In this document: piece after piece, positions 6,310-57,400 of the stretch
Numbering within the stretch: the first letter of the stretch is position 1
How the letters are laid out: each line of letters begins with the position of its first letter
Assembly: GCA_964562525.1 (NCBI GenBank)
Contig: CAZLTL010000006.1
Coordinates: forward strand, 31,187 to 95,186
Direction of reading: 5' to 3'
Source: an uncultured bacterium
GTDB taxonomy: Bacteria > Omnitrophota > Omnitrophia > Omnitrophales > Aquincolibacteriaceae
DNA length: 64,000 bases
Made by a program: the position numbers and the translations under genes
The notes under the pieces: model-generated
Told to the model about the DNA's origin: nothing
What the model saw: only the letters and a program-made list of their open reading frames with translations
Database searches by the model: none

Positions 6310-6312
6310 AAA

Positions 6313-9751: not shown

Positions 9752-9771
9752 GTTTTTTTACGGAGTCATCC

Positions 9772-10857: not shown

Positions 10858-10861
10858 AAAA

Positions 10862-10977: not shown

Positions 10978-10983
10978 CTTATT

Positions 10984-12434: not shown

Positions 12435-14013
12435 ATGAATAGAGTCCCGAGAATTTACAAGCTAATCGCAGTGTTTACCGCACTTTGCTTAGAGTGCACG
12501 TCCATCTCCATTCCCACTTTGCATGCTCAAACAGTTCCGCAAAATATTCTTTCTGTAAAAAAACTGAATCCTGAGATTCTTAAATTACCGGAAAAGTTTG
12601 GTGAGGTGGTGGAAAGCCATGCGGGAAATGGAAATGTGATTGTGGTGCAGGACGCGCACGCAATTCCGGATGCGCAGAAGAATATCGCGAATGTGATCAA
12701 GTATATGCAGCAAGAGTATGGCGTGGGAACCGTTGCACTTGAAGGTGCGAGCGGCGATCTCGATCCGCAAATCTTCCGCAGTTTTCCTGATAAGAAGCTG
12801 CTGCGAGAAGTGATGAACGGGTACATGAATTCGGGTGAAATCGCGGGCGGTACGGCTGCTGCGATTTTCGACGAAACCACAACGAAGTATGTCGGGGTAG
12901 AAGATTGGGATGTTTATGAAGAAGGTTTGGGGCTTTATCTCTCCGCGATGGATAAGACCGCAGCCATTGAAGCTCAGCTATCTGCTTTGCGTGAAAAGTT
13001 AAACAAGGAAAAAGAAGCGATTTATCCGCGGGCGTTACTTGAAGTTGATCACGAGATCGAAAAGTTTTATGAAAATGCCGCGCAGCTAACGGAACTGATT
13101 AAAGTGTTGGGAGCGATTCAAGCCCCTAAGGCAGGCAGTGAACTTGAAGCGGTGTGGAAGGAAGTTTCGAAAGCCCACAGTCCGGCGACCGGAGGCGAGA
13201 GAAAGGACATAGAGGTTCGTGCTTTAGCAGCGAAGGTCGAAAAGGTGTTAAAGAGCCCAGGGGCGGTGAAAGCGTTTAACAGCCGTAAACAAGAATGGAT
13301 GACAGGTCAGATCAGCGCAGAAGCCTTTGCACTCAATTTGAAAGAGTTTGCTGATCAAAGCGGACTTAATCTTGAGATGTCCTCCGATTTGCTCGGAATG
13401 GTACGAGACCAGCAAACGTTAAAGGGGCTTGAAGGAACCAAGCTGTTTCGGGACTTAGAGATTTATATCCGTGAAGTGAAGATGCAGTTAACGCAAAGAC
13501 AACAGACGGATGTTTCGGTTAGCGGTGTGAATGCTGAGATGTCAGCGATTCGGGCGTTGGATGAACGGACGAATTCACTGCGTGTATTAACGAAGCTATC
13601 AAAACTTGAGTTGTCCCGCCAAGAGTGGACGAATTTATCGGGGAATTTGGTGTTTGAGGCCTTTGCGGCATTGGGATTAAAACAAGAAGACTTTCTGTTC
13701 CACCTCGCTTTTTATCTGAATGCTGAAGAACGCGACCAAATCTTTTTCGATAATCTCAAAGCTTCGGTCACCGGCCTCCGGCCTTCCGTGATTGTGGCCG
13801 GTGGTTTTCACGCGGAAGGAATCACGAGCCGCCTCAAAGAGGCGGGAATGGGCTATGCGCTTGTGATGCCGAAGATCAATCACATTCCTGAAAATAACTC
13901 GTACAAAGCGCAGATGCGCGGGGAAGTGTCGTGGAAAGATTATTTTGAAGTTGAGAACGGTCGCATCCATCTTTACAAGGCGTTTGTGCGCGCAACGCGC
14001 GACAAGCTTGTCG
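12435..14013 (+). other. ORF A head module: signal peptide plus split TraB/TIKI/ChaN-like domain
   Basis: The signal-like N-terminus is [11 protein letters not shown]...[41 protein letters not shown] and [12 protein letters not shown] resemble the GTxH...VE and GxGHxxG motifs of TraB/GumN/TIKI-fold proteins. The same motifs occur in ORFs B and C. Confidence 0.5.
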
Positions 14014-20000: not shown

Positions 20001-23000
20001 GAATATTACCGTTCTGCTGATCCTCTTCAGGAAGGTTCTCGAATCAAATGGGAAGAGGTGAACGAGACTTCAGAAGTTGAGATTATAGGTCGTGAGGAGG
20101 AAATGGATAGTGAGGGTACCAAGGTCAAGATTGTTTTTAGTGAACAGGGTTTTACGATTGCCAATGCCTCGATCTCGGATGTTTATTATTTTGAGGGTAA
20201 GCCCGGTCCGGAAATTATTGCTTCCGCTCTTCGGGATAGTTATCTTTCAAGTGCGAGCACAGGTTTGCCCATAGCCACCGAGCCAATTTTTATTGCCGGG
20301 GAGGATGCAACTGAAATTTTTAACTTGGTCACTGAGTTTATTAATCAGGGTCCGTATGTTCCTGCTGCAGGCGAAACCGCTCTCTACACAAAGGTGAAAC
20401 AACAAATTAGGTTGATTACCGAAAGAACCGGCGAAAAGTATCGATTCAACCCGATGATTCAAATAAATGCCTTAAGTGATACTTATAGAGCTTTAAACAA
20501 TTTTCTCATGAATCGATTTACTGACCTGGAAGGCTTGGAAAAAGGTGTGGTCATTCTCAAGCGAATTCCTAATCTTGAGAAGCTGATCGAAGTTTTAAGA
20601 CATTTAATATCAGCTTACGAGCTGGCTTTTAATCACCTTGAGAATTCAACTATTGAGATCGAGGTGGATGAAAAAGAAAACCATCGGCGTCATGCCTTGC
20701 AAATGCTGGTTGAGTTAAAAAAGATTGTTAATTCATATGATTCAATTCCTCCTGCCGAACGACCGCGGGCTGAAATCCAAGGAGAAGTTCGAATGGCAAG
20801 GTTGCCCAGCCAAAAAAACTTTTCCGAGTTCATTTCTTACAATGGCGATAAAATTCCACTTTGGGCAATTAAAAGAATTTATCTGCCGGATAATAGGGTT
20901 ATTCAATTTGGTGAGATTTCTCAGGCTAATAACGAGGATGGTGTGTATGATCGGGAGGATCGCACGAGAGACGTTAGGAATGCCTTGTCACCATTTCCAG
21001 AGAGTGCGGAGATCGTTTTTGAGCTGCAAGATGGCGTTTTATTAAAGCGAATTTTGGAAGCGGAAGAGTATGAGACGATAACGGCAGTCTATCCGGTTGA
21101 TTTTGACCCCAAAGAATTTAGCAGGCTTCCGCACGGAATAGATTTACCGGAGCGGCGGTTTATAAATGCAGTTAACGTGAACGGGTTTATTACCACCCTT
21201 TATGAGTTGGAATCTCTTTTGCCTGAGACTGGGTTAGCCGGCAGGACAGTGACTTTTTTCTATTCCGCGAATAACCATCTTCAAGCCTTCAAAATCAGTG
21301 ATGAAGCTAAACCTCAGTCTGAGCAATATGTTTACTCTCAGTTTCGAAATTCAAGCAATGTTCAGCCTATGTCCGCGCCTTTTTCTGCTCAGGAAACTCA
21401 AGAAATTGCAAAAAAGGATTTGGTTGACCTATTTGCGGATCTCTTTAATCGCCGTGCGTTGACCTCCGCGCAGAGGGTGGTTCCGTTGAGCGCGCTTATT
21501 CTTCAATTTTTGGCTGTCTCGCTTAACGCTAAGGCTGTTTCAGATTGGGCTCAGGAAGGCAAAGTTCCGCTGTTTGAAGTTGAGTTGGCGAACGAACAAA
21601 CCATTTCATTCAGCGGGCTTAATCCTGCTTTACATCACGATGATGCCGTGCGGATTGAAAGACTGCTATCTCAGATTGACGGGGGATTGGATGCCGCTTC
21701 TTTTCGAATTGTTTTGGCGCCTGCTGGACCGGCTACCCAGTCGAATCAAGCGGGGCAATTTTTTGATCGACCCGGGCGTGGTTTGGATGAGTTCAATGCC
21801 TGGCATAAGTTATCTGATGTCTTGGAACTGTTTTTTCTGTCAGTGGGCGAAACTGGCAAAGACAAGAAATTGGATGCTGCGTCAAAACAAAAACTTTTAG
21901 ATAAACTCGCCGTGCTTGTTGAGGCGATAGCCATGATTCATCCTTCAGTAACAGGAAGTGAAATTTATCATACTTTATATGCTGTCATGGATGCTTCAAT
22001 GTTTAGGGCTAAAAAACTAGATACAGGCAGCAGAATCAATGTTTTGATTAATTTGGCGCGCCAAATCAGAGCCGCTGCGCCTCAAGATCCTCAACAGAGC
22101 ATTTATGTGCAAGGTGAGTTTGAATCAAAATTAAAGACCCCAAACTTAGATCTAAATGAATTGGCAAAAGAGACTGCCCGCTCCGAAGCCCGTTCGGCAG
22201 ACTCAGGGCAAGCGCGGGAGGCTGAGGCGGTTGCGGGAGATGTGTTTGGCTTTTTTAAATCGCCCGCGGATTATTCTGCAGACCAGATAAATACTTTGGC
22301 AGATGAAATTGATACATTGGCTGATAAACAAGGGCTTGATGTTTTTGTGAATCTCTTGCGATCGATAGCTCGAGACTTAGCTGTCGTTAGTGTTCAGGGG
22401 AGCGAAAATATTTTAAGCAAAGAAGCGACAAGTTTTGCCGTGAAACTTTTTGTTGGACGCATGATGGCAGCAAAGCGGCAGTCGACTTTAATAGATGTAA
22501 AAATCGAGAAGCCAACCATTGCTTTAGCATTAAAATTGAATGATGCCCAAAAAGCTTCTCTGGGAGATAAGTTGTCCAGCGAATTGGCTGAAATTCTGGG
22601 TGCGGTTCAGATTGAGGCCAAAGATTTTAAAGAATTAGGTGCGTTTTTTAAGAGCGTAGGGGTTTTAGTGACAACGATTGATCCCGATCTAGCAAACGCA
22701 GTTGTATTAGAAAGTTTTGGTGCGGATTGGAGTGGTTTACCTGCCGTGGGTGTCTTAGAAGAATCGCAGCAATTTGATTCGGAGTTAGAAGGGATGCGTA
22801 TTTATTTGCAGCTTTTGATCGCGGCTTATTTAGCTCGGAGCTTTCCGGATAAGAAAGTAATTTTGACACCCGAGATTGTTGGCGAGATTAATAAGCTGCT
22901 GTTTCAATCTGATGCAGGGCAAGAAGGAATTGTGCAGATACAAAATGGTCAGTTAGTTGTTAAACGAAGCAGTCTGCTGGCATATATTCAAACCTTATTC

Positions 23001-23033
23001 GCGGCGCAATCTGCCGTTGCAGTCGCCGCGTAA
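12435..23033 (+). CDS. Giant modular protein A (3,532 aa): signal peptide, head module, multi-enzyme cargo, tail module
   Basis: Uninterrupted 10.6-kb ORF. Recognisable in-frame motifs occur along its whole length (see the domain sub-features). Its N- and C-terminal modules are paralogous to the ORFs at 41847 and 45438. Confidence 0.85.
13179..13199 (+). repeat. In-frame heptamer triplet AGTCCGG CGACCGG AGGCGAG (encodes SPATGGE)
   Basis: Three 7-nt units (21 nt) inside the ORF A head module. Confidence 0.55.
14015..14070 (+). repeat. In-frame heptamer repeat with inverted arm (AGACCGG AGACCGG AGGTCGG ... CCGGACC CCGGACT)
   Basis: Direct reading of the sequence. The arms match as reverse complements at 11 of 14 positions. 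It encodes [18 protein letters not shown] at the end of the head module. Confidence 0.75.
15291..15755 (+). other. ORF A cargo: M50/S2P-like intramembrane metalloprotease-like module
   Basis: Several hydrophobic helices. HELGH (15456-15470) lies within a predicted TM segment ([18 protein letters not shown]), as in site-2 protease/M50 families. A downstream MASGDYEKF may supply the acidic ligand. Confidence 0.55.
16786..17560 (+). other. ORF A cargo: metallo-beta-lactamase-fold hydrolase domain
   Basis: The HxHxDH signature [10 protein letters not shown] is at 16965-16982. Downstream are His/Asp positions (TFGHP, YLSDS, TVHSS). Confidence 0.75.
17650..18230 (+). other. ORF A cargo: cyclic-nucleotide-binding (CAP_ED-like) domain with a large internal insertion
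   Basis: [30 protein letters not shown]...[12 protein letters not shown], then about 75 aa, then [26 protein letters not shown]. Confidence 0.65.
19527..19742 (+). other. ORF A cargo: J-domain (DnaJ N-terminal domain)
   Basis: [34 protein letters not shown]...[23 protein letters not shown], with the HPD tripeptide at 19614-19622. Confidence 0.85.
22179..23030 (+). other. ORF A tail module (shared with ORFs B and C)
   Basis: It starts at the last RSEAR motif and ends ...[38 protein letters not shown]. Compare B ...EDGIEKAGKNWRITKPSLSRLKDIWQRFQAALQVMQSA* and C ...EQEGVGRYKLTNNSLVLYLETILADIEALLATAQSA*. Confidence 0.6.
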
Positions 23034-23073
23034 TCTTTTCCTTATCAGCACCACAAGTCCCGGGTTGGTTTTG

Positions 23074-23108
23074 GTCGTTGGTCTCTAGTCGTTAGTCTTT
23101 AGTCTGTG
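23074..23108. repeat. Intergenic heptamer tandem array (GTCGTTG GTCTCTA GTCGTTA GTCTTTA GTCTGTG) between ORF A and ftsW
   Basis: Five 7-nt units. The reverse-complement units (TAACGAC, CAACGAC) are the same unit seen in frame at 42670 and 46658. Confidence 0.75.
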
Positions 23109-23122
23109 GTATTATCTGCTCC

Positions 23123-24229: not shown

Positions 24230-24233
24230 CCCG

Positions 24234-30645: not shown

Positions 30646-30667
30646 AGTCTACTTTTTTGGAGCTTTC

Positions 30668-31285: not shown

Positions 31286-31287
31286 TT

Positions 31288-41846: not shown

Positions 41847-44800
41847 ATGAGATCAGTTAAGCACAAAAGTAAACGGTGGGTAGCGCTTGGAGCGTGTATT
41901 TGCTTTGTTGCCACGCTCTTTCCCGACGCTCATGCCGCGCTGCCTTCGATTGACATGGCGGTTAAGGCCGAAACTCCTCGTGTTCTTAATATTGACATTC
42001 CCACTGAATTAGCCACAGTCGATGAGTGGTATCAGGCTCCTTCAAAATCCAAGCCGAAACTGATTGTGCATATTCAGGATGCTCACGCGAATTATGAAGC
42101 TCAAACCAAGATTCGTGATGTGATTAAGTATCTCAATACGAATTACGGTTTTAAAACAATTCTCGTTGAAGGCGCGGCAAGTGAGCTGGACCCGAATATT
42201 CTTAAGCTTTTTCCGGATCAAGACCGCAATTTAAAACTTGTCGACGAGCTTGCCAAAATCGGTGAGGTCACCGGCGCGGAAATGTTTTTGGTTGAAAACA
42301 GTGATGCCGCAAAAGGGATGGGGATTGAGAAGCCGGAGCTTTATCGCAAGAATTTTGACGCGCTTCAAAAAGTTTATTCCGAAGATGAGTTTGTCAGCGG
42401 ATTTTTCGAAGCTTATGAAAAAAAATTAGGACAAATTTCATCGCGAAGTTTTGGCCCGCGCATGATCCAAGCTTTGGCCGAATGGCGTAAATTTGAGAGC
42501 GGGCATCGTGATTTTTTACCATTTGTATCTAAGCTGGCGGAGCTTTCCAAGAAAGTTTTAGAGATGGATCTCGGTGTTCTTTACTCGCAGATTGAGTGGC
42601 CGCAATTAACACGTTTGTTGGTTCTGCAGCGTGTTGAAAAAGAATTAGAGCAGACTCATGACAGACGACCAACGACTGACGTCGAAGAAGGTGCTCAGCG
42701 TTCAGCCCTTAGTGTCAAACAACAAGCGGAACTGGAAAAACAGAACATCATCGATTTGATGAAAGTTGCTCAGTCGCCGGAAGGATTGATTCGAGGACTG
42801 GAGAACTTTAATGAGAAATCAGCTAATCTCAACCGCATTGGATCTTCCGAAGTTCGCCAGGCAAGTGCGCCGCGCGCTTTGATGGAGGCGTTGGTGGAAG
42901 AGGGTGCTAAGTTCGGTTTGAACATTCGCGATTATCCTGCTTTTGCCAAATACGCTGGCTATTTGATTCTTCGCGGCGAAATTGTGCCCGCAGAGTTATT
43001 TGAAGAAATTAAAAAGCTATTTGACCTCATTCTTGAATCTCTCGTGAAAGAAGCACCTTCTGCAGCAATGGAGTCAACGGATGATTTAGCCGCTCGCAAA
43101 CGTCTGCTTTTACTGCATCGTGATGAAATGCTGGCGCGCAAACTCCTTAAGCTTGAATTAACCCACGACGAGTGGCTGGCGGTGCTGAATAGACAAGATC
43201 GCTTTTATCCTGATGATTTGAATCGCCGTATGCTTGAACAACTGGGACAAAATACCCGAGTTAAAGAAACCGGCGGGGAAGAAGCCTCGCAAATGAAAAA
43301 ACTCAATGAAGCCTTTCGTGCCGCATTCACTTTCTATTCCGCTGCGGTGAATCGTGACACTTTCTTCTTTCAGCGTACGCAAGAAGTTTTAGCGCAAACC
43401 GACAAAGCCATTTTGATTACCGGAGGTTTTCACGCGGAGGGAATGAAGTATTTCTTTAGAAAATATGACATCAATTACGGAACTCTCACTCCACGCATTA
43501 CCCAAGAGTTCACCAACGAACAATACCGTAAGGTGATGATGACCGGCGTCGAGAAAAACAAAGCGGAGATTACGCAGCAGCTACAGGAAGGATCTTCAGC
43601 GGTGGAGGAGAGCGACACTCCAAAGTCTAAAAAAGCTGCGAAAGAAAACTATCTTGGTGCGGAAAGTCTTATTGATCCTCTAAGTGATGGTTTAGTTGGT
43701 GGGACAAGATCTGAAGTGCGGAGAAATATAGTTCAAATGTTAGCGGTTTCATTGGGCTTACCGAAAATTCAACAAGAAACCTCTTTAGCTGCGCCCGCGC
43801 AGGTGGCCGTTTCACGTCAGCCGAGATCGATCGCAGTACGATTCGAAAGTGTTTCTGCTCCTCAGGGCTTTTTATCTGTCCTAGAGGGGCAGCGAGCTTT
43901 AATTGGTGCGGGTATTGGGATTTTTGGTCTGGTTGCAGCGTATTTAGCCGCGTTATCCTCTCCAATTTTGTTGATTCTGGCGATTCCTTTTACTGCCAGT
44001 GGAATGATTTATGGATTCGATCAATATTTTAAAGCGCAATATTTGATTTCGAATGCCACCAAAGCCGGAAGTGTTGAATTAACCGATAGGCTTGCTACTT
44101 CTAGTCAAACAGAGGTTCCAGTTGTTGTGCAGCGAACGGAGGTTGCGCAAGTGGATGCGGAGCCGCTCACTTTCACTTCTGTTTTAACAGAGTTGGAAGT
44201 TGAAAGAGCGAAGTCTGAGCCAGATGCAGCGCGTTTGGCTGATTTGGTTGCCCAGTTGGTTGATTTAGCCGGTGACATTGAAGAGGCTAAACAAGCTCAG
44301 AATGTACTACGAGATTTAAGAGTTAAATACAAGAATCAGTTGAATCCGTCGCAATCAACCAACCTGATCATGAAAGTAGCACAACTCGCTGTGAAGTTGA
44401 ATCAATTCCAACAAGCTCAAAAATTATATGAGAGGGAGGAGATTGTTGTAACAGCGAAAGCTCCGCGCGAAGCTATTTTTGCAGCTCTTTCTCCGGAGGA
44501 CAGAGGGATTTTAAAGAGGATGGCGTTTGATGATTTAGAGAATCAAATTATTGACGCAAAAGACTTGTCCGCATCGCAAGCTGTGGCTATTTTGATTACT
44601 TACGGATTTATTTCCGATAAGGACCGCAATGCCGCCAAAAACTTAGCGATATTGGCTTCACTGGCTGTCACCAAGATTGCGCCTCAAAGGGTTTCGGAAT
44701 TGGCGGAAATGGTACGAGCCTTTTTCCCGGAAATGGTCTCATCGGACTTGGGTTATTTAGGCCGAATTATTGATGCGAATGGCATCGGAAACAAGTTAGA

Positions 44801-45272
44801 TACGATGCGGATGCAAGCTGTTTTAAATCCAAAAATGGAATTTGAAGTTGTTGTGTTTGGAGAGCGCGGCCCGATGGTTGAAGATAAGGCTCTTTCTAAT
44901 TTGCGTATTCGTTATGCCAAAGATTTTAATTCAGCTGCTAGTTTAGTTACCAGCAAAGGCGCTATGGAGAAATTTAAAATAGGCACCAAAGTATTGATGG
45001 TTGTGCCGGAAGGTAAAGATTTTAGAAAACTAGCTTCTCAGCTCAACTTGCAAATTGTTCAGGAAGAAAATAACCATGAGAAAAATTTAGAGGCGAGTGT
45101 TGCTATGGTTGTTGGAGCTCAGAATCTTGCCAGAAATGTTGAGGCATCCGTTGATGAGGACGGTATTGAAAAAGCAGGCAAGAACTGGCGCATTACAAAG
45201 CCCTCTTTATCAAGGCTAAAGGATATTTGGCAAAGGTTTCAAGCTGCTTTGCAGGTTATGCAATCAGCGTAA
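41847..45272 (+). CDS. Modular protein B (1,141 aa): head module, RSEVR, TM hairpin, tail module (cargo-less family member)
   Basis: Signal peptide (...FPDAHA/ALP). The head aligns closely with ORF C (HIQDAHANYEAQTKIRDVIKYLNTNYGFKTILVEGA; EWRKFESGHRDFLPFV; LLVLQRVEKEL; AILITGGFHAEGM). The tail ends ...ALQVMQSA*. Confidence 0.85.
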   Translation: MRSVKHKSKRWVALGACICFVATLFPDAHAALPSIDMAVKAETPRVLNIDIPTELATVDEWYQAPSKSKPKLIVHIQDAHANYEAQTKIRDVIKYLNTNYGFKTILVEGAASELDPNILKLFPDQDRNLKLVDELAKIGEVTGAEMFLVENSDAAKGMGIEKPELYRKNFDALQKVYSEDEFVSGFFEAYEKKLGQISSRSFGPRMIQALAEWRKFESGHRDFLPFVSKLAELSKKVLEMDLGVLYSQIEWPQLTRLLVLQRVEKELEQTHDRRPTTDVEEGAQRSALSVKQQAELEKQNIIDLMKVAQSPEGLIRGLENFNEKSANLNRIGSSEVRQASAPRALMEALVEEGAKFGLNIRDYPAFAKYAGYLILRGEIVPAELFEEIKKLFDLILESLVKEAPSAAMESTDDLAARKRLLLLHRDEMLARKLLKLELTHDEWLAVLNRQDRFYPDDLNRRMLEQLGQNTRVKETGGEEASQMKKLNEAFRAAFTFYSAAVNRDTFFFQRTQEVLAQTDKAILITGGFHAEGMKYFFRKYDINYGTLTPRITQEFTNEQYRKVMMTGVEKNKAEITQQLQEGSSAVEESDTPKSKKAAKENYLGAESLIDPLSDGLVGGTRSEVRRNIVQMLAVSLGLPKIQQETSLAAPAQVAVSRQPRSIAVRFESVSAPQGFLSVLEGQRALIGAGIGIFGLVAAYLAALSSPILLILAIPFTASGMIYGFDQYFKAQYLISNATKAGSVELTDRLATSSQTEVPVVVQRTEVAQVDAEPLTFTSVLTELEVERAKSEPDAARLADLVAQLVDLAGDIEEAKQAQNVLRDLRVKYKNQLNPSQSTNLIMKVAQLAVKLNQFQQAQKLYEREEIVVTAKAPREAIFAALSPEDRGILKRMAFDDLENQIIDAKDLSASQAVAILITYGFISDKDRNAAKNLAILASLAVTKIAPQRVSELAEMVRAFFPEMVSSDLGYLGRIIDANGIGNKLDTMRMQAVLNPKMEFEVVVFGERGPMVEDKALSNLRIRYAKDFNSAASLVTSKGAMEKFKIGTKVLMVVPEGKDFRKLASQLNLQIVQEENNHEKNLEASVAMVVGAQNLARNVEASVDEDGIEKAGKNWRITKPSLSRLKDIWQRFQAALQVMQSA
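42663..42718 (+). repeat. In-frame heptamer triplet AGACGAC CAACGAC TGACGTC plus an imperfect inverted arm
   Basis: Directly follows the codons for LLVLQRVEKEL(EQTH). Encodes DRRPTTDVEEGAQRSALSV. Confidence 0.65.
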
Positions 45273-45437: not shown

Positions 45438-48400
45438 ATGCGTAACTCGTCCTGGCTTAAATTCACCGCTGGTGTATTTACGTTTCTTTTCGTTTTAAAC
45501 GACATTGGGCAAGCTGCGCCTGCGCTTGACTTTGCGGCGTCGTTGCGTTCAGAAATTCCGCGCGTATCCCATATTGAAATTCCACCTGAAATGGCAACTC
45601 TGGAAGATTGGTATGAATCGCCGAACGTAGGAGATACGCGGCTTATGCTTCACATTCAAGATGCTCACGCTCAGCCTGAAGCGCAAGCACGAATCCGTGA
45701 TCTCATCCACTATTTAAATAAACAGTATGGTTTTAAAACAGTTTTTGTTGAAGGTGCAGCGGAACAACTTGATGTGAAGTGGCTGCATCCATTTAAAAAT
45801 TCTGAACAAAACAAAAAGTGGATTGAAGAAAAAACATCTTCAGGCGAAATGTCGGGCGTTGATTTGGCATTGCTTGATGGCGTTGCCGGGCTCAAGGCTT
45901 TGCCAATTGAAACAATTGAAGGCTATCGGGATGGTTATCAAAAACTGCACGCGGTTTATACCGCTGAACCAGAGGTGAACGAGTTTATTAATTTTTTTGA
46001 CTCCAAGCTCGATTCAGCGGCATCCAAGATTTTGAATGAAAAAACAAGACGTATTCTTTCTGAGTGGAAAAAGTTTGAGTCTGGACATCGTGATTTTCTG
46101 CCTTTTGTTGAAAAATTAGCCGCGCTTGCGAAAGAGGATCTCAAGCTTGATTTAGACGCTCTCTACTCCCAAATCGAATGGCCACAACTGAGTCGGCTAC
46201 TTGTTCTTCAGCGAGTTGAGAAAGAACTCGCTGAAGCGGTGCCGACAGGGCAAAGGTCAAAAGTCAAAGGTCAAAGCCATAACTCAAAGCCGGTTAGCTG
46301 GAGAGAACAAGCGCTCGATGAAAAGGAAATAGTTCTCAATTTGCTAAAAGACGAACAAGCTAGCTCGGGATTGATCCATGGTCTCGAGCGGTTTGACGAG
46401 AAACATCTCAACTTAAACCGTATTACTGTCGGCGATGGAAGGCAATTTTCGAGCCCGCGCGCTTTAGTTGAGCAGTTAGTTGAAGAAACTCGCAAATTTG
46501 AGATTGATTTGCGAGATTATCTCGCTTTTTTGAAATACGCCGGATATTTGATTTTACGCGGCGAACTTCAGCCTTCTTTGCTTTTCAAGGAAATAGAGCG
46601 CCTTTTTGAGAAATTCCTCGAGAAGACTAACGACCCTTCGGCTGAGCTCAGGGCAAGCCAACGACTAACGACTAACGCCGGAGAAGATGTTCAGCGTGAA
46701 GCGCAGAGCGTTAAGCTGATCGAGATCTACCGCGATTCATTTCTTTTAAAAAAGTTGCTTAATCTTGAGCTTTCTCGCGAGGAGTGGCGAAAAGCGCTTG
46801 CGAAGCGGGAGGAGCTTGAACCGCAAAAGATTTTAGGGAGACTAAAGAATCTTGGAGCCGCGGTCCACGGTCCACGAGCCACGGCAAACGAAAAAAAGAT
46901 CACGAATCTTGAACCTCGAACTACGGAAAATCAGGACGTGGAGCGCACGTTTGAGAATGCCTTTGATTTTTATGATGCCGCGTTAGCGCGTGAAGATATT
47001 TTCTTTGAGAAAATTAGTTCGTCTTTGGCTCAAAACGATAAAGCGATTTTGATAACGGGCGGTTTTCATAGCGAAGGAATGAATGCGTTTTTTCGTGAAA
47101 AAGAAATTTCTTACGGAACCTTAACGCCGCGTATTACCAATCTTGCGCCCACTTCTTTGTACCGCAGCGCGATGATGCAAGCGACAAATTTGTCTAAAGT
47201 TTCGTCTCAGCCCACCCCAGCCTTGGCACAGCCGCTCGAGACTATTGCCGCCATGACTGCTTTGAGCGTGGTTGCAGTTCGTTCTGAAAGCCGACTTCAG
47301 ACTGAAGCTGCCGATTTTGTTCAATGGGTTGAGGATTTGAAATTAGTTCGGGATCCAAATAATGCCGCTGAAATCGAAACTGTTTTGCTTCGCCATCGAG
47401 ATCTTTTTAAGCATAGACCCGATGAATTTCCTGAAGAGTCGGTTAGCTTTCGCGGAAGAAATTTGCAGAAGATTCCTTCTCGTTTGATTCATCAGCTTGA
47501 TCTTACTTGGCTTAATGGCCGAAATTCTGATGCCAAACCGATTACAAGAAATGACTTGTTTCAGTTGGTATTTGACCGGCCTTTGGATGAAAACGAAGCT
47601 AAGGGGTTTGCCGGGTATGACAACATACAAAGTTTGCGTGATTTGTTCTATTTTTTGATTACTAAAGAGCATGGCAGAAGTTTGCAGCTTTTTGCAGAGC
47701 AGTATTTTGCTTTGGACTCCGGACAACGAGAGCTTTTTTTGGAGCAAGCATTTGATATTCATCAAATTACTCAGTATTTGATGGGGCAGATGGCTCGTAA
47801 CGATGATTATGAAGTTTCTGATGAGATTTTAACGGCTTACGCGAAAGCATGGCCAATTGTCATTCAATTTGGAGAGGCAGAGCTTCAATCGGGCGGGATA
47901 TTAAAGCGGTTAAAGACCGTTCCGGATTTGCCGGTTGACATCGATTTGCGCTCAAATCAGGATTCGGGGCAAGAAGTAATTTTAGAAGATTGGGAGCGAG
48001 CCCTTTTGCTGCTTGAGAACTATGTTGAGATCGGAGATGAGTCGATTGATACTCAAATCGGAGTGGTTTCATTGGGATTAAGGAGTTTGGCGGGGGATCA
48101 GGCAACGGAGGTTCGCTGGTCTCGTGCATCATCACTGGAACGGGCTGTGGCAGTTCGTCTGGAAGGAACTTTGCCTCTATCTCGCGAGGAAGCGAATCGA
48201 TATTTGCGATGGCTTGAAGTTGCGGATAGCGATTTGAATGGATTGGATCAAGCCAAACTTTTTGAGCCGAATCGTCTGGTCTTGATCGGCAAAATTGCCA
48301 GTTTGCGTGAACAGATAGTTGCTCGTCAGCTGCAGTCTGAATCTCGAGAGGATGAGCGTGATAGGGGAATGGCTCGATCAGAATTACGTACCGTTGAAAT

Positions 48401-51400
48401 TGACGGAGTCACTGCGAACTGGGAAATTGTGGAAAACCTGCTGCTGGGAGACCCCGGAAAATTTGATGCGGCATTCGAGTTTGAAAAAGACGAAGAGGTT
48501 TACTTAAAAATAAAACCCGCCAACTTCAAACAGCAGCAAGATTTGACTGAAGCGGGTTTTGAGTCTGAAAATCCGAATTGGGTTAAGAGTTTAGTGGATG
48601 ATGCGCAGCTGCTTACTTATGTGGTTGGAGCTCAGCCCAAGATCCGTGCTTATCTTGTCCAAGATAAATCAAGAAATACGACCGGCTTAAATCAAATCGA
48701 GTTTGATGCGGGCGGAGTTGTTCGGCCGAAGGGTGATAAGGGTATTTCTGCAAGCCGGTTGAATGAAGCTGGCCAACTAATTACTTTTATACCGCAGGTT
48801 TTTGTTTTAACGAAAGCCGGAGTTTTGCCCGGCAGATTTAAAACTTTATCAGAAAAAGATGAAATAGAACGTGTTGCGGCTGAAAGATTGGCTGCTGAGC
48901 AAGAAAATCTGCGGGCAGTTCAGCGTTCAACTGCCGCATTAAAAGAAATTCAAGACCGCATGAGTGCGCTCGCGGCATCGATGGAAAGTGAGTCTGCGTG
49001 GTCTTTTGTTCCTCAAAGCATTCCTAATATTGATCGTGAGGAAATTGCGGATAGCGATGACCTTAAGTTGATTCGAGCGCGCAGTCAGATGATTTCTGAA
49101 GATTTGAATTCTTTACGAATAGCTTGGCAGCAGGCGACGGATACACAAAAGAAATGGGACAGGCTGCTCCGAGATTGGGCTTCTGCTTACGATAAAATCA
49201 ACAAAGAAAGCAGTAAGCTTGCCGGCTTAAATTTTCAATCGATTGCGGTGAATCTGCAAAGCCGCCGTGAGGCATTGAATAAAATAGAAACGTATCTTGA
49301 AAGTTTGGTCAGAATAATGGGCTCGTTTCAAGCCAAAAAAGCTGAATTTGAAAGCAAATTACAGGCTGAGAAAGAAAGAAAAAGAGCGGAAATAGAGCGA
49401 GTTCGGTTCGAATCTTCTCAGAGGCGTGGTGCTTTTTGGGATAGGGTTAACCGTTGGGGGCCGTTTGGTTTGATCGCTTTTGCTGCAATGGCTCTGATTT
49501 GGTTTTTGGGGATACGCGAAAAAACTGTCGCACCTGAAGTTCGTTTGTCGCAACCGGAAATGATGGATTATTCTTTACAGGGCTTGCCCCAAGGGATTTT
49601 GGACGCAATGCAGCGAAATCGGCAGAATTTGAAATGGACCCCGCAAGAGGTTCTTTTACAGCTGCAGACTCTTATATCAAAGCATGTCACAGATGAGCTG
49701 GATTTGGGGCCAATGACAATTGCTGGTTTTCCAAAAGATTTCGATCAGCTTGAAGTTGTAAACCCGCCCAAGGATGCTTACTCGATTGTTATTCCGGGAG
49801 TGCAATTTTACCAAGCCGAGTTCATTCCGAAGCTGAATAACAAACCGATTAAGCAATTTCAGCAAATGGTTGTTTCAGTAGAAACAGTTCGCGGTGCGAA
49901 AGTATTTTATGCACAAGATACGATTGTGCAGGTGGGCGAATGGCTGCTTTCTTTAGCGGGCGATTCGATTTCTTCAGCGGAGAGTTTGCGGATGGGTGCC
50001 TACATTGCCCAGGAGTTTGCCGGCACCACCTTTGGTTTAGAGCAAATTGATCATTGGCTTGCGAAAAACGGTGCCTCGCAGGCTCCGAGTCCATTGCTGC
50101 GAGGGCAAGTCGATTTGCCGGTAACGTATTTTATCGCTAAAGAACTTGAGGGATTGCTGTCATCAGACTCTCCGTTTGTTGAGCCGTTTCGGGAGCTGGA
50201 GAAGCAATTAAACGGAGGGCAGGGGAATGTTTCCGCTTCCGGTAAGATTTTGACAGCACTCATAATCAGCGTTTACGCAGACTCTAAGCTCTATCTTGAA
50301 AAAATTAGCGTGGATGAGCAAAAGAAAATATTTGATGCATTATCAAGAGAGCTTGTCCCGCTGGTAAATCAGAATGGCGTTGGCGTTGAGGTTGCGGCGC
50401 TTGAGCGCCTGCGCGGTTCGATCACTTTTCGAATGGCGTCGCAAACTCAAATGCTTTCGGCAGGTTTAAGAAATGGTTCAATTACCTCCGAACAAGCAGT
50501 CTTGCTGTGGAATCAGCTGATGGGGTTGGAGGAGGAAAACATTTTAGCGATTGTTGGATATTTAAATCAGAAAAATATTCCTCAGGCCGCCAAGCTTTCT
50601 GGGTTTGTCAAAAGTTACTTTGAGAATGCCCGTGCTCTTAGCCAAGACCCTGATGGGGTAAGGTATATTCGCGAGCAAGTTGAATTAAGAATGAGAATGG
50701 GAACAGAGCTACTGCACAAATCTGAGCAGACAAAACCGGCCGGTCGTTCTGAAATGCGGGAGTTTGGTGAGCTGGTTGAACGTGTTATTTCGCACACTCA
50801 TTCGGATGGTGCGAACAAAGATCAACGGAAAAACCTTGTTGATTTTTTTAGGATGATGTCGCGAGGATATCAGCAAGAGTTTCTTGCGGAGCTTCAGCAT
50901 CAAGCGCAAGGACAGCCTGCAAGGAAAAAAATAAAAATTGTTTTAAGTCATGAAAATCCTGACCCCGACGCGATCATTAGCGTGATCGGCGAAGCATACG
51001 CTCAGTGGGCGGCATTAAGCGATCAAGAAAAAGATAAAACCTTGGTGATGCCTTTGCTTTACGGCGAGGTTCCGGCAAACACCTTGTATTTGATTCAAAT
51101 GCTGGAACGTCTGCTTAAGAATGATACGGTTCCGGATGAACAGGAATATGGCGGAATGCTCATGCTTCGTGGTCCACCTGCAATTTCTGGAAAGACGGCT
51201 CCCGGAACGATTCTAGATTTATTACTTATAATTAGCACTAACGCTTCTCAGCAGGACTTATTTCAGCCGTCCGGAGCGATAGAGCTAACCTTGATCGATT
51301 TTAACCCTTCTATTGCTCCAAAAGATTTGGATCCTCTTATGCCTGCGATTGTCCGAACCCTGGATCATCACATCCAAAATGTTGAAAAAGCACCGAATAT

Positions 51401-54400
51401 GACTGCGGAGGAAACTTTTATTTTTAAGAATGGCTCAGCCTCAACATTAGCCGCATTGCGCGCCGCAGGCTTAGGGACATACTTAAGTCGCTCAGATTTA
51501 TTTACGCAGCAAAATGTTTCGGCCAATTCTTTTGCAGAGGAACGCGAAAAAATGGAATCAGCTATGTCGGCAATTCCACTGCCGTTACGCCTTTTGTTCT
51601 TGCTGGCAATCATGATTGATACCGATAACTTTAAAAACGACAGTACGGTTAAACCTGTTGATATTTTGGTTTATGAGAGTTTACAGAAGTCTTTATCCGC
51701 CGGGCTGGTTTCCTTTTCTGAATTGATTCCTTACCGTGATCTTATTAAAGATTTTTTGTCGAATTATCACCTCAAAAAAGATTTTTTGCAGGATGATTCC
51801 GCTCGTTCAGTCGCAGAGGTCGATGCTCACAATCGCAAGGCCCTCGTGGACTTAATTTTAAAAGGGGATAAGAAGAAATTTCTCACAGCGGATGGGCAGC
51901 CTTTTCTTTTTTCGAGCATTGATCTTTCTTCTGTTTCTGACCTTCCGAGGATTCGTACTGTGCTTGAACTTGCCCTTCAGGATGTGTTTAACCAAGTTAT
52001 TCGTAATTATGGAACAGGTCAAGATGGCAGCTCAGCTGGGGCGGAGCAATATGCTTTTGTCGTAGTTCGTTTTGCTTTTTGGGGCGATCAAAAGGTTGAA
52101 ATTCACACCATGCGAAAAAACTTAACCGCAAATCAACCGGGGATAGATGGGCAGGCTTTGGCAAACTTTATGCAGGCCGCGATGACGACGAATGGCCAAC
52201 CACCCCTTTCAGGCACTTCGCACAAACATGGTTTTGTTTTGCTCCCGGCGACATGGATGCAGCGTAAGCAACTTTCCGGTTTATTGGAAAATTATAAAAA
52301 CCCTGAAAAAGAGACTCGCCGTTCTGAAAGCCGCGCCGGTTATATTTCGAGAAGAACTGCGATTTTTGGGGGATTGATGGCATTGTCCTCTTATTTTGTT
52401 CCTTCGTCATTAGTGGCAGAGCAAAATGCGCAAAAATGGCGTGATGGCGAAAGGCTCATGCACGGTTTAGGCGCTTGGGGTGTTGTCGCGGGCGAGTACG
52501 GCGACACCGATGCTAGTCACATGATTTATCGCGGCCAATCTTTATCTGAAATTAAAATTAGTTTTGATACAAGACGAGGACATGCTCCGCAGGCCGTAAG
52601 CATCAATGCGAATGGCGCCATTCGCGGGCATGCGGTGCAACCAGGAAGAAACGACGGTCTTGCCTCTACTTTTTATCTTCTTCGGTATCACGATGAAAAG
52701 GGCGTTTTACATGACAGCGCTTTGATTCAGAAATTGTTAGGAGTTAAAACACAAGAAGGAAAGCTTGTGTTGGATGTTGAGTTAGGCGACCGCGAAAAGG
52801 GTGCCTCCCGTTGGAAGACTATGAATGCCCAAATTGTTATTTATCCTCCCGATCGTGTTGATGGGACGTTGCGGATGGATATCCACCGCTCTGCTCCTCA
52901 GGGTTTGAAAGTGTCTCAAGAAAAATTAGGTTTAATGGAAGGTCTCATGACGGAATTTATCGCTACGAACCATAGCGGTGCGGATTCTGACTTTGATGGC
53001 AGAGAGTATTCAGATGCTCAGGCAGCTCAATTTTATGATGACAAAGGAAAACTTGTTCTCGATCGAGATTTGAAAAAGGCGCGTGATGAGGTTCCTTCTG
53101 ATTCGGGTTTCAGACTTATAACCGCGGAAGGGGATGATTGGATGCCGAAGAAAATAGGGGGTATAGCGGCTTTTGCGGTGGTAAGTGAAAAACATTCACC
53201 GGCGCACCAATTTAAGCGCATGCCTATTCCTCCGACGATGTTGGTTGTGCCGCATCAAGGATTTTATTTGGCATCAGGTGCGGTGACTTATCGGAAAGGC
53301 GAAACCAATTTTAATTCGGATAATGTGAATGTTACGGTTCAACCCGAAGATGTTGAGGCGGCTTTAAGTAAACCATCATCGGTTTCGGTTTTCTTTATGC
53401 CCGGCGCGACACCTGAATCAGAGAAGCGTATTCCGGCTATGATTCAGTCTGTGCGTCGCTCCGAAGTTCGAGGGGATCAGGACAGGCAATTGGGTGGAGC
53501 AATTTCATTTCCGATTATTATTGGTTTGCTAGGTTCGTTCACCGCCGGCGTTTATGTTTCGATGCTTACACCCGCAATCGCCGGACTCGCTGCGGCGGCC
53601 CTATTCTTTTTACCGATTTATGCTGGCGCACGCTTTTTTTGGCGGACGGTTGTGGAGGGAAAGAATTTTCCATTTCAAAATCTTCAAGACGCCTTTTTGT
53701 GGGAATCGAAACTATTGGCACGCGTTTTATCAAAGAATTGGTCTGAGATTAAACTTTGGATTTTTATGCGAAAAACGCTTTCCGCCGAAGAGATGAGGAA
53801 TCAATTTGATGAGCTCAGCTCTTGGGGGTTAATCCAATCGGACGTGGATGCTTCCTTTTCGGATTCTAAAGATTCTCTCAAGATTCGATTTAAGCTTTTA
53901 AGCTTAGATTCGGAAGAATCGGCCGCAACATCGTCTCATAGCTTGAGTATATCGCGCATTTTTGCCGATGGTGAGCGCGTTTATTTTGAATATTACGATG
54001 ATTCACAATCTCCGGCACGCTACCGCTATCGTATTTTTGATCAAAGCAATTTAAAGAGTGCTGCCGAAGATTTAAGCGCAAACGACTATCGCGCCCAATA
54101 TCGTTCAATTGCCGCACTACATCGATCTGTTCCAACAAGTTTTCTGGATGTCATGAATGATCATAATGAGAGCCCGAGACGCTGGAGCCTTTTGTTTTAT
54201 CCGCTTGTGATTGCGTTTGCAGTATTTGCAGGCTATCAGTATGTGGGAGCTGATGTGATGGACTGGATTTCGCTCTGGCATGATGTGCGATCATCTTATG
54301 TGAAGTTGTTATCGCCGCTTTCCGTTGAAGCGGTGATGGGTATTGGGGTTTTATCTTTGGCAGGTATTGTTCTAGCTTTATTCATTGTTGATCGGGTTTT

Positions 54401-57400
54401 TCTTTTTCTTCAAACATTGATATTTATGATTGCCTCGCTTCCGGCAACTTTGGTCTATGCACTTATTTATTATTCGCGCGTTCCCGATTTAATTTATTTT
54501 GCGTTTTCAAAAAGTGGCAAGCTCAAGCCGACACTTCTGAATAAGCTGGTTAATTTATCGGTTGGTTTGGATGAAATGGAACCCGAGGAACCTGAGTTCG
54601 GAGAAGAGGAAAAATCTGCCCTGATTCGTGAGCAAATAACTCAAACACTTTCAAGTTACGAGATTGGCGTTGATGATCAAATTACTTATTTTGGGAATGA
54701 TCGCCGCTTGGCAAATGAGTTGGCAGCATTTCAGCCCGATACCTATGTTGTTATTTCTCCTGAAAGTGAAAATCTCTCCCAAATTGAAATTGATTTAACG
54801 GCCCCATTTGATGGCGAGGGCATTTGGGAAAGAGCGACCGATAAAACAATTGTTTTTTTTGATGATCACGCCCAAGAAACATTTACCTTTGTGAATGAAT
54901 TGGATTTTAGCCGCGACCAGGTTGTGATTATCGACCCGGACGTTGAAGTGACTTGGGATGAACTGAATGCCTTTTTAACTCAGACGACAGGGACTGGTCT
55001 GATCGTTGGTCATCGCAGTTCCTTTCCGGAAAACTGGGAAAATTTGCTGGGGGATGACGAGCGTTTTGAGGTGCTTGAGGCTGATGATATTGTCACTATT
55101 CACATGAACGATATCAATCGTTCTGAAACACGTTTACAAAAAGCATCATTGCAAATCGTTGACGCGCTTCAAGGCTACGCAAATTGGCTTTCAACATCAG
55201 AGTATGATTTAAGCGCTTCCGCGGTGCGCAAGCAACCTCAACGACTGCGTGAAATAGGTGCTTTTATGGTTTTAGGCAATCCGGATGCTAAAACATTTAT
55301 TGAGTTTGCTAAAGGCTGGTATGAGATTGCTCAAAAAGTTCAGCGCCAAATTCCGATTGTCATAGCCGGAGGCATTGGCAGGGGAACAATAGGTTTGATT
55401 GATACGACGCTTGAGCACTATAGGCAATTAGGACGTTTGAATCCCGCAGAGGAAAAACTTTTGCTCAAAATGCGTTCTCAGGTTGAAAGTTATCTTGAAG
55501 CGAAGGCGTCTGCCGCGATTGCCCGATCAAAACAGCCTGAACATCCCGGTGTGACGGAAAAAAATGTCATCATGTTTATTTTTGCCAAAGAAGGTGTTGG
55601 GCGTTTTGCGTCTCAGCCAGGCAAAGTCGAAGCTTTTGACCCCAGACAGAATTACACCGGGGCTCCGGTGTATTTTGAAAATGGAAACTCGACAAACACT
55701 CCTGAGAACTTTGAGTTTTCCAAGCCTGTTTTTGAATCATTGGTTCAAGAGGGTTTGATTCTGCCTAATCAGAAAACTGTCATTGTGACCGAACCCGCGC
55801 TTTTGGCGAGAATTAAACCTACTTTGCTTTATGTTGCAAAGGAAAAGGGCTGGCAAGGAGATATGAATTGGCCGCGCGCGCGGGTTTATCCGCTTGATTT
55901 AAAAAAGCTGTTTAAGCCGAATAGCATGACTGCGGAAAACGCACAGCGGTTGCTGGATAAAATTCTTTATTGGGCCGGGCCCTCTAAGCGCATGATCGAA
56001 ATGTTTCCCGACTCCGCAAAGAATGTGAGTGAGCTTAAAAAATATGCAGACCAGTATTGGGGGGCTATTTCTGATGGCGGGCTTGACTTTAAAGTGCCCG
56101 TAGAAAAGCTGCGTGAGCGCGTGCCTGAGTACTCAGCTGCGGAAGGCTTGATTCAATCCACATTGATGGCAACCGATGAGTTTCTAGATGCTTTGAGTGA
56201 AGCCAGTTACAAAATTGAATTCGATACGTTGAACCGCACTTTTACGGTCACCGCCCGATCTGAGTCGCGAATGCTTGGAAAAGATAGTTTAATCACCACC
56301 GCAAAAATGACTTTTGAGAATGCTTTGGCCATGGTGAAGCGACGCGGTTCGGATGCGATTACAGATGAGACAGTGAGATTAGCCGAAAACTATCATCGTA
56401 CCCCAGAAGCATGGATCATTGCGAATGAAGAGGAACGCCGCTATGCCGAGCGGCTCTCTTCGATGACTTTGGCGGAAATGAAGGAACATGCTGAAGACAA
56501 AACAAATCCGATTTACGGAGAATTAAACAAATACCGAGGCTTCGATTCAATTGTCAATTATCTCAGTAACGTTCAGGCCCGTCGCGGCGGACAATCGCTT
56601 TCCATTGCGCAACGCTGGATCGATATCCTTACCCAAAGTAACCCGGAAGTTATGGCACAATTTTTTGAGGGTGACCCCGATAATAAGGCGTTGCAAAACT
56701 TGCGTTTTTACCGAGCGTTTTTGCGTGAAATGATTTACCGTTGGGACACCAATGAGAAACCGCGTTCCGCAGAATTGTTTAATGCTCGTTCCGAAATGCG
56801 TTTAGCGGACGAAGATCGCGCTGCCCTTGAGCAATCACTTTCGGAGCTGATGAAATATTTGTCGCAAGGACGCGTTTACCGCATGACACCGGGAATGAAA
56901 GCCTTTGAAATGGACGAGTCATCACGGCCAATGGCTTGGGATGAAATCGCTAATTTGCCTGAGGACTATTTGCCGGATGCAGTTTTATATTTTGGCAGCC
57001 GTGATGATCAGGTTCCGCAGCTTTCGATACCGGTTTTACAAAAAATGATCGCGCGTAAACCTGATTTGAAGATTGTGACCACCGGCAAATGGAGTGATAC
57101 GCATACGGAACTGGCCGGAAACTTCAAAGATGAGTCCGGCGCGCGGATTTCCGAGGCTGAGCATTTTGCCCGCATTCTCGAAAGAGAGTTGGCAATTCAA
57201 GTCGAGCGCGAATCCAATTCAACCAATACCGGACAAAATATTTCGATGGGGCGGGAAAAGTTGACCCAAGCCGGAGTTGATACAAAAAATATTAAACTAT
57301 TGGTTGTCGCTCAGCCGGCGCATCAGCGCCGTGTCGGCGCTTCGGTGTTGAAGCAATGGCTGAAGCCCGAAGAGCTTGCGGGAGGAGACTATCAATTGCA

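Follow-up and report, generated by a model that had tools for sequence, protein, structure and literature searches.

An alanine-terminated C-terminal module in a putative family of exported giant proteins from Omnitrophota

Introduction

Members of the phylum Omnitrophota are noted for the longest predicted proteins in biology. Here we examine a stretch of 64,000 nucleotides (nt), referred to below as the window, from an uncultured bacterium assigned to the Omnitrophota family Aquincolibacteriaceae (assembly GCA_964562525.1, contig CAZLTL010000006.1, positions 31,187 to 95,186 of the forward strand). Its GC content is 45.7%, and homologues of its proteins carry Candidatus Omnitrophota names. 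Three of its genes encode large proteins, which we call A, B and C; A lies inside a cluster of division and cell-wall (dcw) genes, and B and C adjoin each other (Table 1). A preliminary description of the window had pointed out that all three, otherwise divergent and very large, end in a similar tail of about 40 residues with QSA at or near the C-terminus, and had proposed that the tail is a secretion, sorting or anchoring signal. The coordinates and sequences that it gave for the three tails proved correct when we checked the translations. We report that the tail is the end of a predicted folded domain in a family of related proteins, that its conserved feature is the extreme terminus itself, and that this terminus may be read by a partner in the cell envelope.

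Results

One family with two constant ends

Judged from their sequences, A, B and C are paralogues within one family of Sec-exported envelope proteins that is restricted to Omnitrophota, and we consider it highly probable both that this family exists as described and that its members close with a folded C-terminal domain. Their common layout is a signal peptide, an N-terminal domain of ~550 amino acids (aa), a hypervariable middle and a C-terminal alpha/beta domain of ~150-185 aa; among relatives, the middle between the two end domains varies strongly in length as well as in content. The N-terminal domain is homologous in all three proteins by BLASTP (B-C 43% identity, E 3e-134; A-C E 5e-14; A-B E 3e-17), and because they have this domain in common they are paralogues rather than unrelated proteins that happen to share a tail. 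The earlier view of the three as otherwise divergent proteins with a conserved C-terminus therefore stands as far as their fast divergence is concerned, but it has to be amended for this second, N-terminal region of homology.

Members of the family were defined independently of the tail, by a homologue search with full-length B (P and L numbers below denote proteins and loci, respectively). The closer orthologues of B align beyond the N-terminal domain; the distant ones (P0008 onward, 37-41% identity) align over that domain only, which is 45-50% of the query. An alignment-based homologue search returned mostly N-terminal fragments of A-like giants, without their C-termini, and one further locus, L087, was found by anchoring on an acyltransferase in metagenome contigs.

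The predicted N-terminal domain has an alpha/beta fold in common with the Erythromycin esterase/ChaN/TraB/TIKI superfamily, with which ~150-160 residues superpose at 11-17% identity. Its invariant residues are Q72, H75, E103, G104 and G456-H459 in A, and H80, E108 and G526-G527-F528-H529 (GGFH) in B. No Pfam or NCBIfam family matched the domain at permissive thresholds, PDB sequences (E≤10) gave only weak matches unrelated to the fold, and a Foldseek search with the domain returned nothing significant. On the model, it is best read as a divergent member of this fold group that carries a large helical insertion of ~350 aa, a feature which, together with the want of a sequence-profile match, sets it apart from Erythromycin esterase, ChaN, TraB/PrgY and TIKI themselves. 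From the fold alone, we infer that the invariant His, Glu and His may be catalytic. The TIKI, TraB/PrgY and RRSP relatives are peptidases, RRSP being a likely member of the TIKI fold group.

Split versions of the family were also seen. In L005 (10001-15368) and L006 (1410-6777), a gene for the N-terminal domain only (P0040, 562 aa) overlaps by 32 nt a tail-bearing gene of 1236 aa that has no signal peptide of its own, and in L004 (10001-22613) an 870-aa N-domain gene lies 161 nt ahead of one that exceeds 3315 aa. Genuine splitting, a frameshift or an error of assembly could each account for such pairs.

Table 1. Positions in the window of the three proteins, their terminal domains and their tails.
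Feature	Position	Strand	Basis
Protein A, A-type family member, 3532 aa	12435..23033	+	Open reading frame call; placed between murD and ftsW
N-terminal conserved domain of A, aa ~32-520, after signal peptide aa 1-31	12528..13994	+	BLASTP against B and C
Tail of A, 46 aa, with the end-anchored helix in its final 21 aa (22968-23030)	22893..23030	+	End-anchored matrix; A-type relatives
Protein B, 1141 aa, syntenic core member of the family	41847..45272	+	Open reading frame call; orthologues P0002-P0018
N-terminal domain of B, aa 31-575, predicted Erythromycin esterase/ChaN/TraB/TIKI-like fold	41937..43571	+	
Hydrophobic stretch of B, 41 aa, aa 684-724, read as a two-helix membrane hairpin	43896..44018	+	Hydropathy scan; model helices 680-704 and 706-739
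C-terminal Rossmann-like alpha/beta domain of B, aa 957-1141	44715..45269	+	Predicted model
Tail of B, last 46 aa: DEDGI loop, WRIT beta-hairpin, PSLSR short helix, terminal amphipathic helix to VMQSA	45132..45269	+	
Protein C, 4733 aa, giant tandem paralogue of B	45438..59639	+	Open reading frame call; N-domain homology to B
N-terminal conserved domain of C, aa ~26-590	45513..47207	+	BLASTP against B
C-terminal domain of C, last ~157 aa, homologous to that of B	59166..59636	+	Hidden Markov model; hhalign
Tail of C, last 46 aa, ending LLATAQSA	59499..59636	+	hhalign; end-anchored matrix

The conserved end of the tail

The translated proteins end in ...AVAVAA (A), ...ALQVMQSA (B) and ...LLATAQSA (C). 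That they share a tail is real, but the conserved end is not QSA; it is a hydrophobic residue followed by x-[S/A]-A and the free carboxyl group (hydrophobic-x-[S/A]-A-COOH). The QSA of A is internal, 5-7 residues from the end, and has been replaced in the A-type relatives, which end in FKAQHATAVAA (L007), IQASQAAAVSA (L008) and ATQVTQQAA (L005, L006), so that A aligns with the others by its end and its QSA is coincidental. Nor does the similarity stop at the ~40 residues first described: B and C resemble each other across a whole domain of ~150 aa.

An SA or AA end was found in 23 of the 31 members defined by the N-terminal domain, compared with 54 of 2223 background open reading frames (ORFs) of at least 200 aa (2.4%; binomial P ~5e-31), and in 17 of 25 when similar tails were collapsed (P ~3e-22). 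Among the exceptions, at least two carry a source name that marks them as partial; the distant N-domain relatives P0024 and P0027 do not end in SA or AA. Nearly every match that seems complete has an amphipathic helix and then x-[S/A]-A, examples of such ends being MQSA, MRSA, SRSA, AKSA, AVSA, AKAA, AAAA, QASA and SRAA. Among the 31 genes of the window, only A, B and C end this way.

When 29 tails from all subfamilies were aligned by their ends without gaps, the last position (P0) was Ala in 29/29 and P-1 was Ser or Ala in 27/29, while P-8 was Ala in 20/29 and P-14 was Ile, Leu or Val in 28/29. Hydrophobic residues recur at P-3/-4, P-7/-8, P-10, P-13/-14 and P-17/-18, that is with a periodicity of 3-4 residues and no gaps; this is the pattern of an amphipathic helix held in a constant register relative to the free C-terminus. 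In an alignment of 22 full-length sequences, A1141 is the sole invariant column outside the N-terminal domain, and the last 45 aa are the best-conserved 45-aa window outside it. Six closer B orthologues show 61-86% identity in the N-terminal domain, 37-70% in the tail and 22-51% in the rest of the C-terminal domain; the middle, 378-927 aa long, is lowest in five of the six (15-24%) and reaches 40% in P0003.

Formal comparisons of the tails gave a graded picture. With the last 40 aa, Smith-Waterman scores set against 1000 shuffles gave z=7.1 for A-C (0/1000 reached the score), z=4.3 for B-C and z=-0.1 for A-B, and BLASTP of the full proteins did not report the tails. Profile-profile comparison (hhalign) of the last 200 aa of four subfamily alignments (B-close, B-distant, C-type and A-type) matched B-close with B-distant (96% probability, E 2.3e-9, 148 columns), B-close with C-type from end to end (84% probability, E 7.6e-6, 145 columns) and B-distant with C-type over exactly the last 41 columns (91% probability, E 1.2e-6). 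The A-type profile had no significant match to the other subfamilies, its best alignment (E 0.012) being end-anchored too. A hidden Markov model (HMM) of B-type C-terminal domains that had been built without C recovered, among 735 ORFs of the window, the last 157 aa of C at E 1.1e-4, aligned to the very end, and a leave-out HMM of the 50-aa tails of the distant B orthologues found B at its extreme C-terminus (E 1.8e-4).

An ungapped, end-anchored log-odds matrix of 21 positions was trained on B-type and distant members, all A- and C-type sequences being kept out. It gives the terminus of A 24.9 bits, which is rank 1 of 3512 positions (internal maximum 7.6) and above every non-family terminus among 5180 ORFs. 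The end likewise ranks first in C (1/4713), in the A-type relative of L007 (1/736) and in the relative of L005 (1/1216), and third in that of L008 (3/3213); a gapped-profile window-scan control agrees with the matrix on A. Taken together, the SA/AA counts and the end-anchored matrix exclude chance or composition as the source of the likeness. The likeness of the three tails is one of common descent and strong constraint, and not that of a portable tag grafted onto unrelated proteins.

The tail as part of a predicted domain

AlphaFold2 modelled full-length B (22 sequences) with a predicted local distance difference test score (pLDDT) of 75-90 in the N-terminal domain and 70-88 in an alpha/beta domain at residues ~965-1141, the score being 54 at residues 1131-1140 and 36 at the final residue. 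The last 185 aa of B modelled alone (18 sequences) reached a pLDDT of 82.7 and a predicted template modelling score of 0.82, with the hairpin and the terminal helix at pLDDT 75-90. The predicted fold is a three-layer, Rossmann-like alpha/beta fold, with its elements in the order strand-helix-strand-strand-helix-strand-helix-strand-helix, beta-hairpin, short helix, terminal helix. Each part of the pattern by which the tails were first described has its counterpart in this model. A loop is made by the acidic residue together with [ED]G[IV], the hairpin (WRIT in B) corresponds to the beta-like stretch, the short helix begins at SL, and the amphipathic helix comes last in the domain. By this model, the tail belongs to a folded C-terminal domain, to which it supplies the closing hairpin and helix, and is not a detachable peptide.

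This placement is what would be expected if the role of the tail were purely structural, that is, if it were the last strand-helix unit required for folding of the C-terminal domain, its small end residues serving for packing or for an ion-paired carboxylate, with no reader at all. AlphaFold2 puts the tail inside a confident globular domain, the hydrophobic periodicity suits a helix packed on a sheet, and no gene for a partner was found in the window or in the examined loci. Yet the last residue is the single invariant position outside the N-terminal domain, a gapless register to the terminus is kept in subfamilies that can otherwise barely be aligned, and the pLDDT falls at the tip. We therefore regard a structural role without a reader as possible, if somewhat unlikely.

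Hypervariable giants between conserved flanks

A giant gene between murD and ftsW was found only in the two nearest relatives, L007 (2516-4783) and L008 (2-9700), whose FtsW proteins are 86% and 98% identical to that of the window, respectively (L008 being from genome UBA2337); murD abuts ftsW in 9 of the 10 other Omnitrophota-like loci checked. Compared with L008, the flanks of the window show 78-85% nucleotide identity, whereas the giant itself cannot be aligned at the nucleotide level and gives three short protein matches only, at 32-38% identity. For C, the comparison with L087 gave 76% nucleotide identity from position 59651 on, 12 bases past the stop codon of C and at the boundary of the neighbouring tetratricopeptide repeat (TPR) gene. 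Here too, C and the L087 giant (window 45438-59651 against L087 20-6760) are not alignable at the nucleotide level, and at the protein level they are 27% identical over 158 aa. The divergent giants nonetheless still end in ...AAAVSA (L008) and ...AYATAA (L087).

From these sequence comparisons, both giant loci behave as hypervariable islands in a conserved core synteny. The best reason to think that the two terminal modules are needed for function is that such constant ends enclose a hypervariable interior.

Export and topology

Sec-type signal peptides are recognizable by inspection at the N-termini of all members (basic residues, a hydrophobic core and an AxA-like site). In P0008-P0013 and P0016-P0018 (~1000 aa; P0008 1614 aa), no further hydrophobic stretch passed the hydropathy screen, and these distant B orthologues, having a signal peptide and no such stretch, should therefore be exported whole, tail included; P0014 and P0015 each have one weak hydrophobic stretch. 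The close B orthologues (P0001-P0007) have one uncharged hydrophobic stretch of 41-46 aa in a hydropathy scan and, if this is a two-helix hairpin, their chain would return to the outside. On this basis, we infer that B-type members are probably exported together with their tails. By crude hydropathy counts, A appears to have two hairpins and C ~7 segments.

Searches for a sorting signal and its machinery

A 51-position profile of the tail, a short profile of limited sensitivity, was searched against 1.84 billion representative proteins and gave 17 matches at E≤1e-3. Sixteen of these belong to the family, whole or as C-terminal fragments, and in every case the extreme C-terminus was the part matched; the seventeenth, not inspected, is a 5013-aa protein with weak internal matches in five stretches. 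At E≤1, no relevant sorting-signal model of NCBIfam matched the last 200 aa of A, B or C; in Pfam (E≤0.001), B and C have no listed family, and nothing is listed at the tail of A. Pfam and NCBIfam at permissive thresholds and PDB sequences likewise yielded nothing relevant to the C-terminal domain. The tails contain neither a hydrophobic stretch of at least 17 residues nor an Arg/Lys cluster, and so lack the signature of exosortase, rhombosortase and archaeosortase substrates, and an LPXTG-like motif with a hydrophobic segment and a positive tail is absent from the translated tails of all three proteins. The C-terminal domain (CTD) of type IX secretion (T9SS) substrates, a beta-sandwich of ~80-100 aa of the Por_Secre_tail type, has no Pfam or NCBIfam match here, the predicted fold being Rossmann-like instead. 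The preliminary description was thus right that the tail matches none of the LPXTG, PEP-CTERM, GlyGly-CTERM and T9SS CTD patterns, as NCBIfam, Pfam and the translated tails agree. In the loci examined for gene content, no gene for a sortase, exosortase, rhombosortase, T9SS, type I secretion system or other transporter recurs beside family members: their neighbourhoods are conserved housekeeping synteny in L001, L002, L003, L087 and L148, and unrelated genes in L004, L005, L006, L146 and L147. Neither the window nor these loci contain a sortase-like gene.

The idea of a secretion, sorting or anchoring signal, whose one positive argument is the conservation of the tail, is neither supported nor refuted by these results. 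It could be upheld as a family-specific module, in which the C-terminal domain and tail together would direct the exported protein across or onto the outer membrane or the wall. As in the known C-terminal sorting domains (T9SS CTD, PEP-CTERM, GlyGly-CTERM, LPXTG), a conserved extreme C-terminal module sits on large, variable, exported proteins; the T9SS CTD is likewise a folded domain and not a bare peptide, and folded C-terminal domains do act as signals in type IX secretion. Moreover, the conserved end modules bracket a hypervariable cargo that diverges faster than its flanks, as in surface proteins under diversifying selection, and since no known sorting model matches, the system would be of a new type. 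However, the tail is present in one family only, whose members also have the N-terminal domain in common, and was never found on unrelated cargo, apart from the one weak internal match. No dedicated sorting enzyme or transporter recurs nearby, and the tail has no transmembrane helix with a basic cluster, no signature motif and no beta-sandwich, but is predicted to form the last hairpin and helix of a confident Rossmann-like domain. The close B orthologues, furthermore, appear to be tethered to the inner membrane by their hairpin. We accordingly think a sorting role improbable.

An uncleaved C-terminal signal like those of type I secretion, composed of an amphipathic helix and a small or hydroxylated extreme terminus, has very little to recommend it. 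A region of ~50 aa with a helix and an -SA/-AA terminus may resemble the HlyA-type pattern, as in the termini of HlyA and HasA, but every member begins with a Sec-type signal peptide, Pfam showed neither RTX nor other repeats, no genes for ABC, membrane fusion protein or TolC components lie nearby in the examined loci, and the tail is predicted to be folded into a domain. The low-molecular-weight penicillin-binding proteins PBP5/6 offer another parallel, being exported and anchored to the membrane by a C-terminal amphipathic helix. In contrast to such an anchor, the helix of the tail is predicted to pack on the sheet of its domain, its polar face is not markedly basic, and its invariant Ala would not be explained.

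Gene neighbourhoods and cargo

The cluster around A reads murE, murF, mraY, murD, A, ftsW, murG, murC, murB, ddl, ftsQ, ftsA. It is atypical (window 2992-12237 and 29401-33684) in that mraZ, rsmH and ftsI are not upstream of murE, where an AAA ATPase, a GAF-HD protein and a 156-aa protein without assignment occupy the place ahead of it, and in that ftsA is followed not by ftsZ but by MlaC and an MMPL/RND-like transporter. At L148, mraZ, rsmH and ftsI lie close upstream of the B-like gene, with two genes of the glutathione-synthesis type in between.

Upstream of the adjoining B and C are gcvT, with a gcvH-like frame in the gap after it, gcvP genes, a lipoate-protein ligase gene and uvrD; downstream of C follow a convergent TPR gene and genes for a PlsC-like acyltransferase, an EEP-family protein and an M48 (Ste24-like) peptidase. 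The order uvrD, B-like gene, acyltransferase-EEP-M48 is conserved in L003 and L148, and L001 and L002 show its upstream half; in some loci, an intervening giant, or TPR and FeS-assembly genes, stand between the B-like gene and the trio. The trio, whose M48 peptidase has a five-helix N-terminal domain, is found at 60389-63028 in the window, at 13271-15994 in L003 and at 14429-17066 in L148, and L087 (7494-10109) has ORFs of matching sizes in the same positions. The convergent TPR gene (222-227 aa, minus strand) directly adjoins the last family gene on its 3' side in the window (59652-60320), L087 (6757-7425) and L148 (13189-13872), and in two loci overlaps the end of that gene by 4 nt. Its product is ~96% identical between the window and L087 and, as it has no signal peptide, is probably cytoplasmic.

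As for the cargo, Pfam matches in A comprise metallo-beta-lactamase, cNMP-binding and DnaJ domains. Between predicted membrane helices of A (aa 957-1093, window ~15303-15713) lies an HELGH motif. Two families match here weakly, Peptidase_M50 at E 0.03 and DUF3267, a "putative zincin peptidase", at E 9e-4, which is below the cutoff; by these sequence features, the region may be a membrane-embedded metalloprotease module within the giant. In L001, the B orthologue P0004 is followed by a giant of 4944 aa (15179-25019) with His_Phos_1 and weak Radical_SAM matches and a C-terminus outside the stretch examined. Since C has no Pfam domains, the cargo of C-type giants differs between relatives.

Discussion

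As a rule, terminal helices fray at their ends and are not constant in length. Here the final alanine is invariant, the length of the helix up to the terminus is fixed, and the pLDDT of the model falls at the tip, all of which suggests that the free end is read by some partner. With middling confidence, we therefore favour a family-specific folded C-terminal module whose free end is recognized by a partner. The hydrophobic face of the terminal helix would pack on the sheet of the C-terminal domain, and the last few residues would protrude as a small, uncharged free terminus, which a partner in the envelope would then read as a C-terminal peptide, that is, as a docking terminus on an invariant C-terminal handle.

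The best-characterized reader of exported, small and uncharged C-termini is the PDZ domain of C-terminal-processing proteases. Among possible partners, a PDZ-type C-terminal-processing (tail-specific) protease such as Prc or CtpA would fit best, and it would set the processing or lifetime of the family proteins. The termini of Prc/Tsp and CtpA substrates and the SsrA tag (...LAA) likewise consist of small uncharged residues that are read, outside the cytoplasm, as a free terminus. The end of the family proteins, -[S/A]-A with a hydrophobic residue at P-3 and P-4, may be comparable, on a tip where pLDDT drops. It differs in that P-1 is Ser/Ala and P-2 varies, being often polar or basic, and its recognition would be by analogy. 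We propose this protease step only tentatively.

Several results weigh against a read terminus. No gene for a PDZ/S41 protease lies in the window or recurs beside family genes, a search that did not cover whole genomes. No partner would be needed to account for the invariance if the C-terminus were buried and ion-paired, and the alignments from which the fall of pLDDT at the tip derives are shallow (18-22 sequences). The C-type relative in L087 fits the end-anchored matrix weakly (rank 42/2226), and the leave-out HMM of distant B tails that found B did not detect A or C, although gapped short profiles are too weak here, where the ungapped end-anchored matrix worked. Finally, DnaJ and cNMP-binding domains normally act in the cytoplasm, and A has both; should A have its C-terminus in the cytoplasm, a reader in the periplasm could not act on every member. 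The same tension between cytoplasmic-type domains and the membrane is noted for Omnitrophota giants in general in a 2026 preprint (10.64898/2026.06.07.730766).

Other ways in which the end might be recognized were considered and are not favoured. A cytoplasmic degron of the ClpXP/SsrA type does not apply to B-type members, which are exported. Processing of the CAAX type by the Ste24-like M48 peptidase, which is encoded at least three genes downstream, is at odds with tails that have no Cys, and this neighbourhood is housekeeping synteny. The terminus is not a signal-peptidase AxA site, as the residue at -3 is not small, and recognition by the convergent TPR protein is unlikely, since that protein lacks a signal peptide and is probably cytoplasmic.

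Alternatively, the partner might be the family itself: the C-terminus or C-terminal domain would bind the TIKI/TraB/Ere-like N-terminal domain of its own chain or of a paralogue as a substrate, pseudo-substrate or latch, which would close the giant into a loop or regulate the hydrolase. Conservation throughout the family is confined to the N-terminal domain and the tail, and all complete members with an SA or AA end have both; the split genes keep the N-terminal domain beside the tail-bearing part (overlapping in L005 and L006, 161 nt apart in L004), and the fold of the N-terminal domain matches TIKI/TraB relatives that are peptidases. Nevertheless, the distant N-domain relatives P0024 and P0027 have no SA or AA end, and the catalytic role of the His/Glu/His residues is read from the fold only, so that we see docking between the two ends as an unlikely arrangement. 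Equally unlikely is a novel two-handle system peculiar to Omnitrophota, in which a dedicated receptor, or the protein's own N-terminal hydrolase, would read the terminus in order to place, latch or process long envelope proteins. Were this scheme true, the interior would be free to diversify exceptionally fast, including in the one copy inside the dcw cluster.

The family and its end-anchored motif are undescribed, and neither terminal domain is covered by a curated model; in kind, the folds are common ones and the arrangement is that of exported proteins which vary but keep a conserved module at the terminus. Two works on giant proteins of Omnitrophota (West-Roberts et al. 2023, 10.1101/2023.11.21.568195; a 2026 survey of complete genomes, 10.64898/2026.06.07.730766) describe, in the passages matched by term searches, C39/S8 peptidase, SecA-like and dockerin-type content, together with type II secretion-like neighbours. 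A, B and C are like those giants in phylum, in great length, in belonging to the signal-peptide-plus-transmembrane class and in the presence of cytoplasmic-type enzyme domains in membrane-associated giants, but have none of these C39/S8, SecA-like or dockerin-type domains or type II secretion-like neighbours as there described, and term searches of the two texts met with neither a conserved C-terminal tail nor a location in the dcw cluster.

If the tail is purely structural, the practical value of the motif is limited to annotation. Together with the two terminal domains, it can be used to recognize complete members in fragmented metagenomes and to mark where the hypervariable cargo starts and stops. 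It also gives hypotheses of terminus recognition that are suited to peptides and point mutants, and the distant B orthologues, which at ~1000 aa are predicted to be soluble, with a signal peptide only, and have the same constant ends as the giants of 3.5-4.7 thousand residues, are a small and tractable model. Giant loci that outpace their flanks, one of them between murD and ftsW, are of interest for interactions with a host or prey. The family thus bears on how the giant proteins of Omnitrophota are exported, positioned and turned over.

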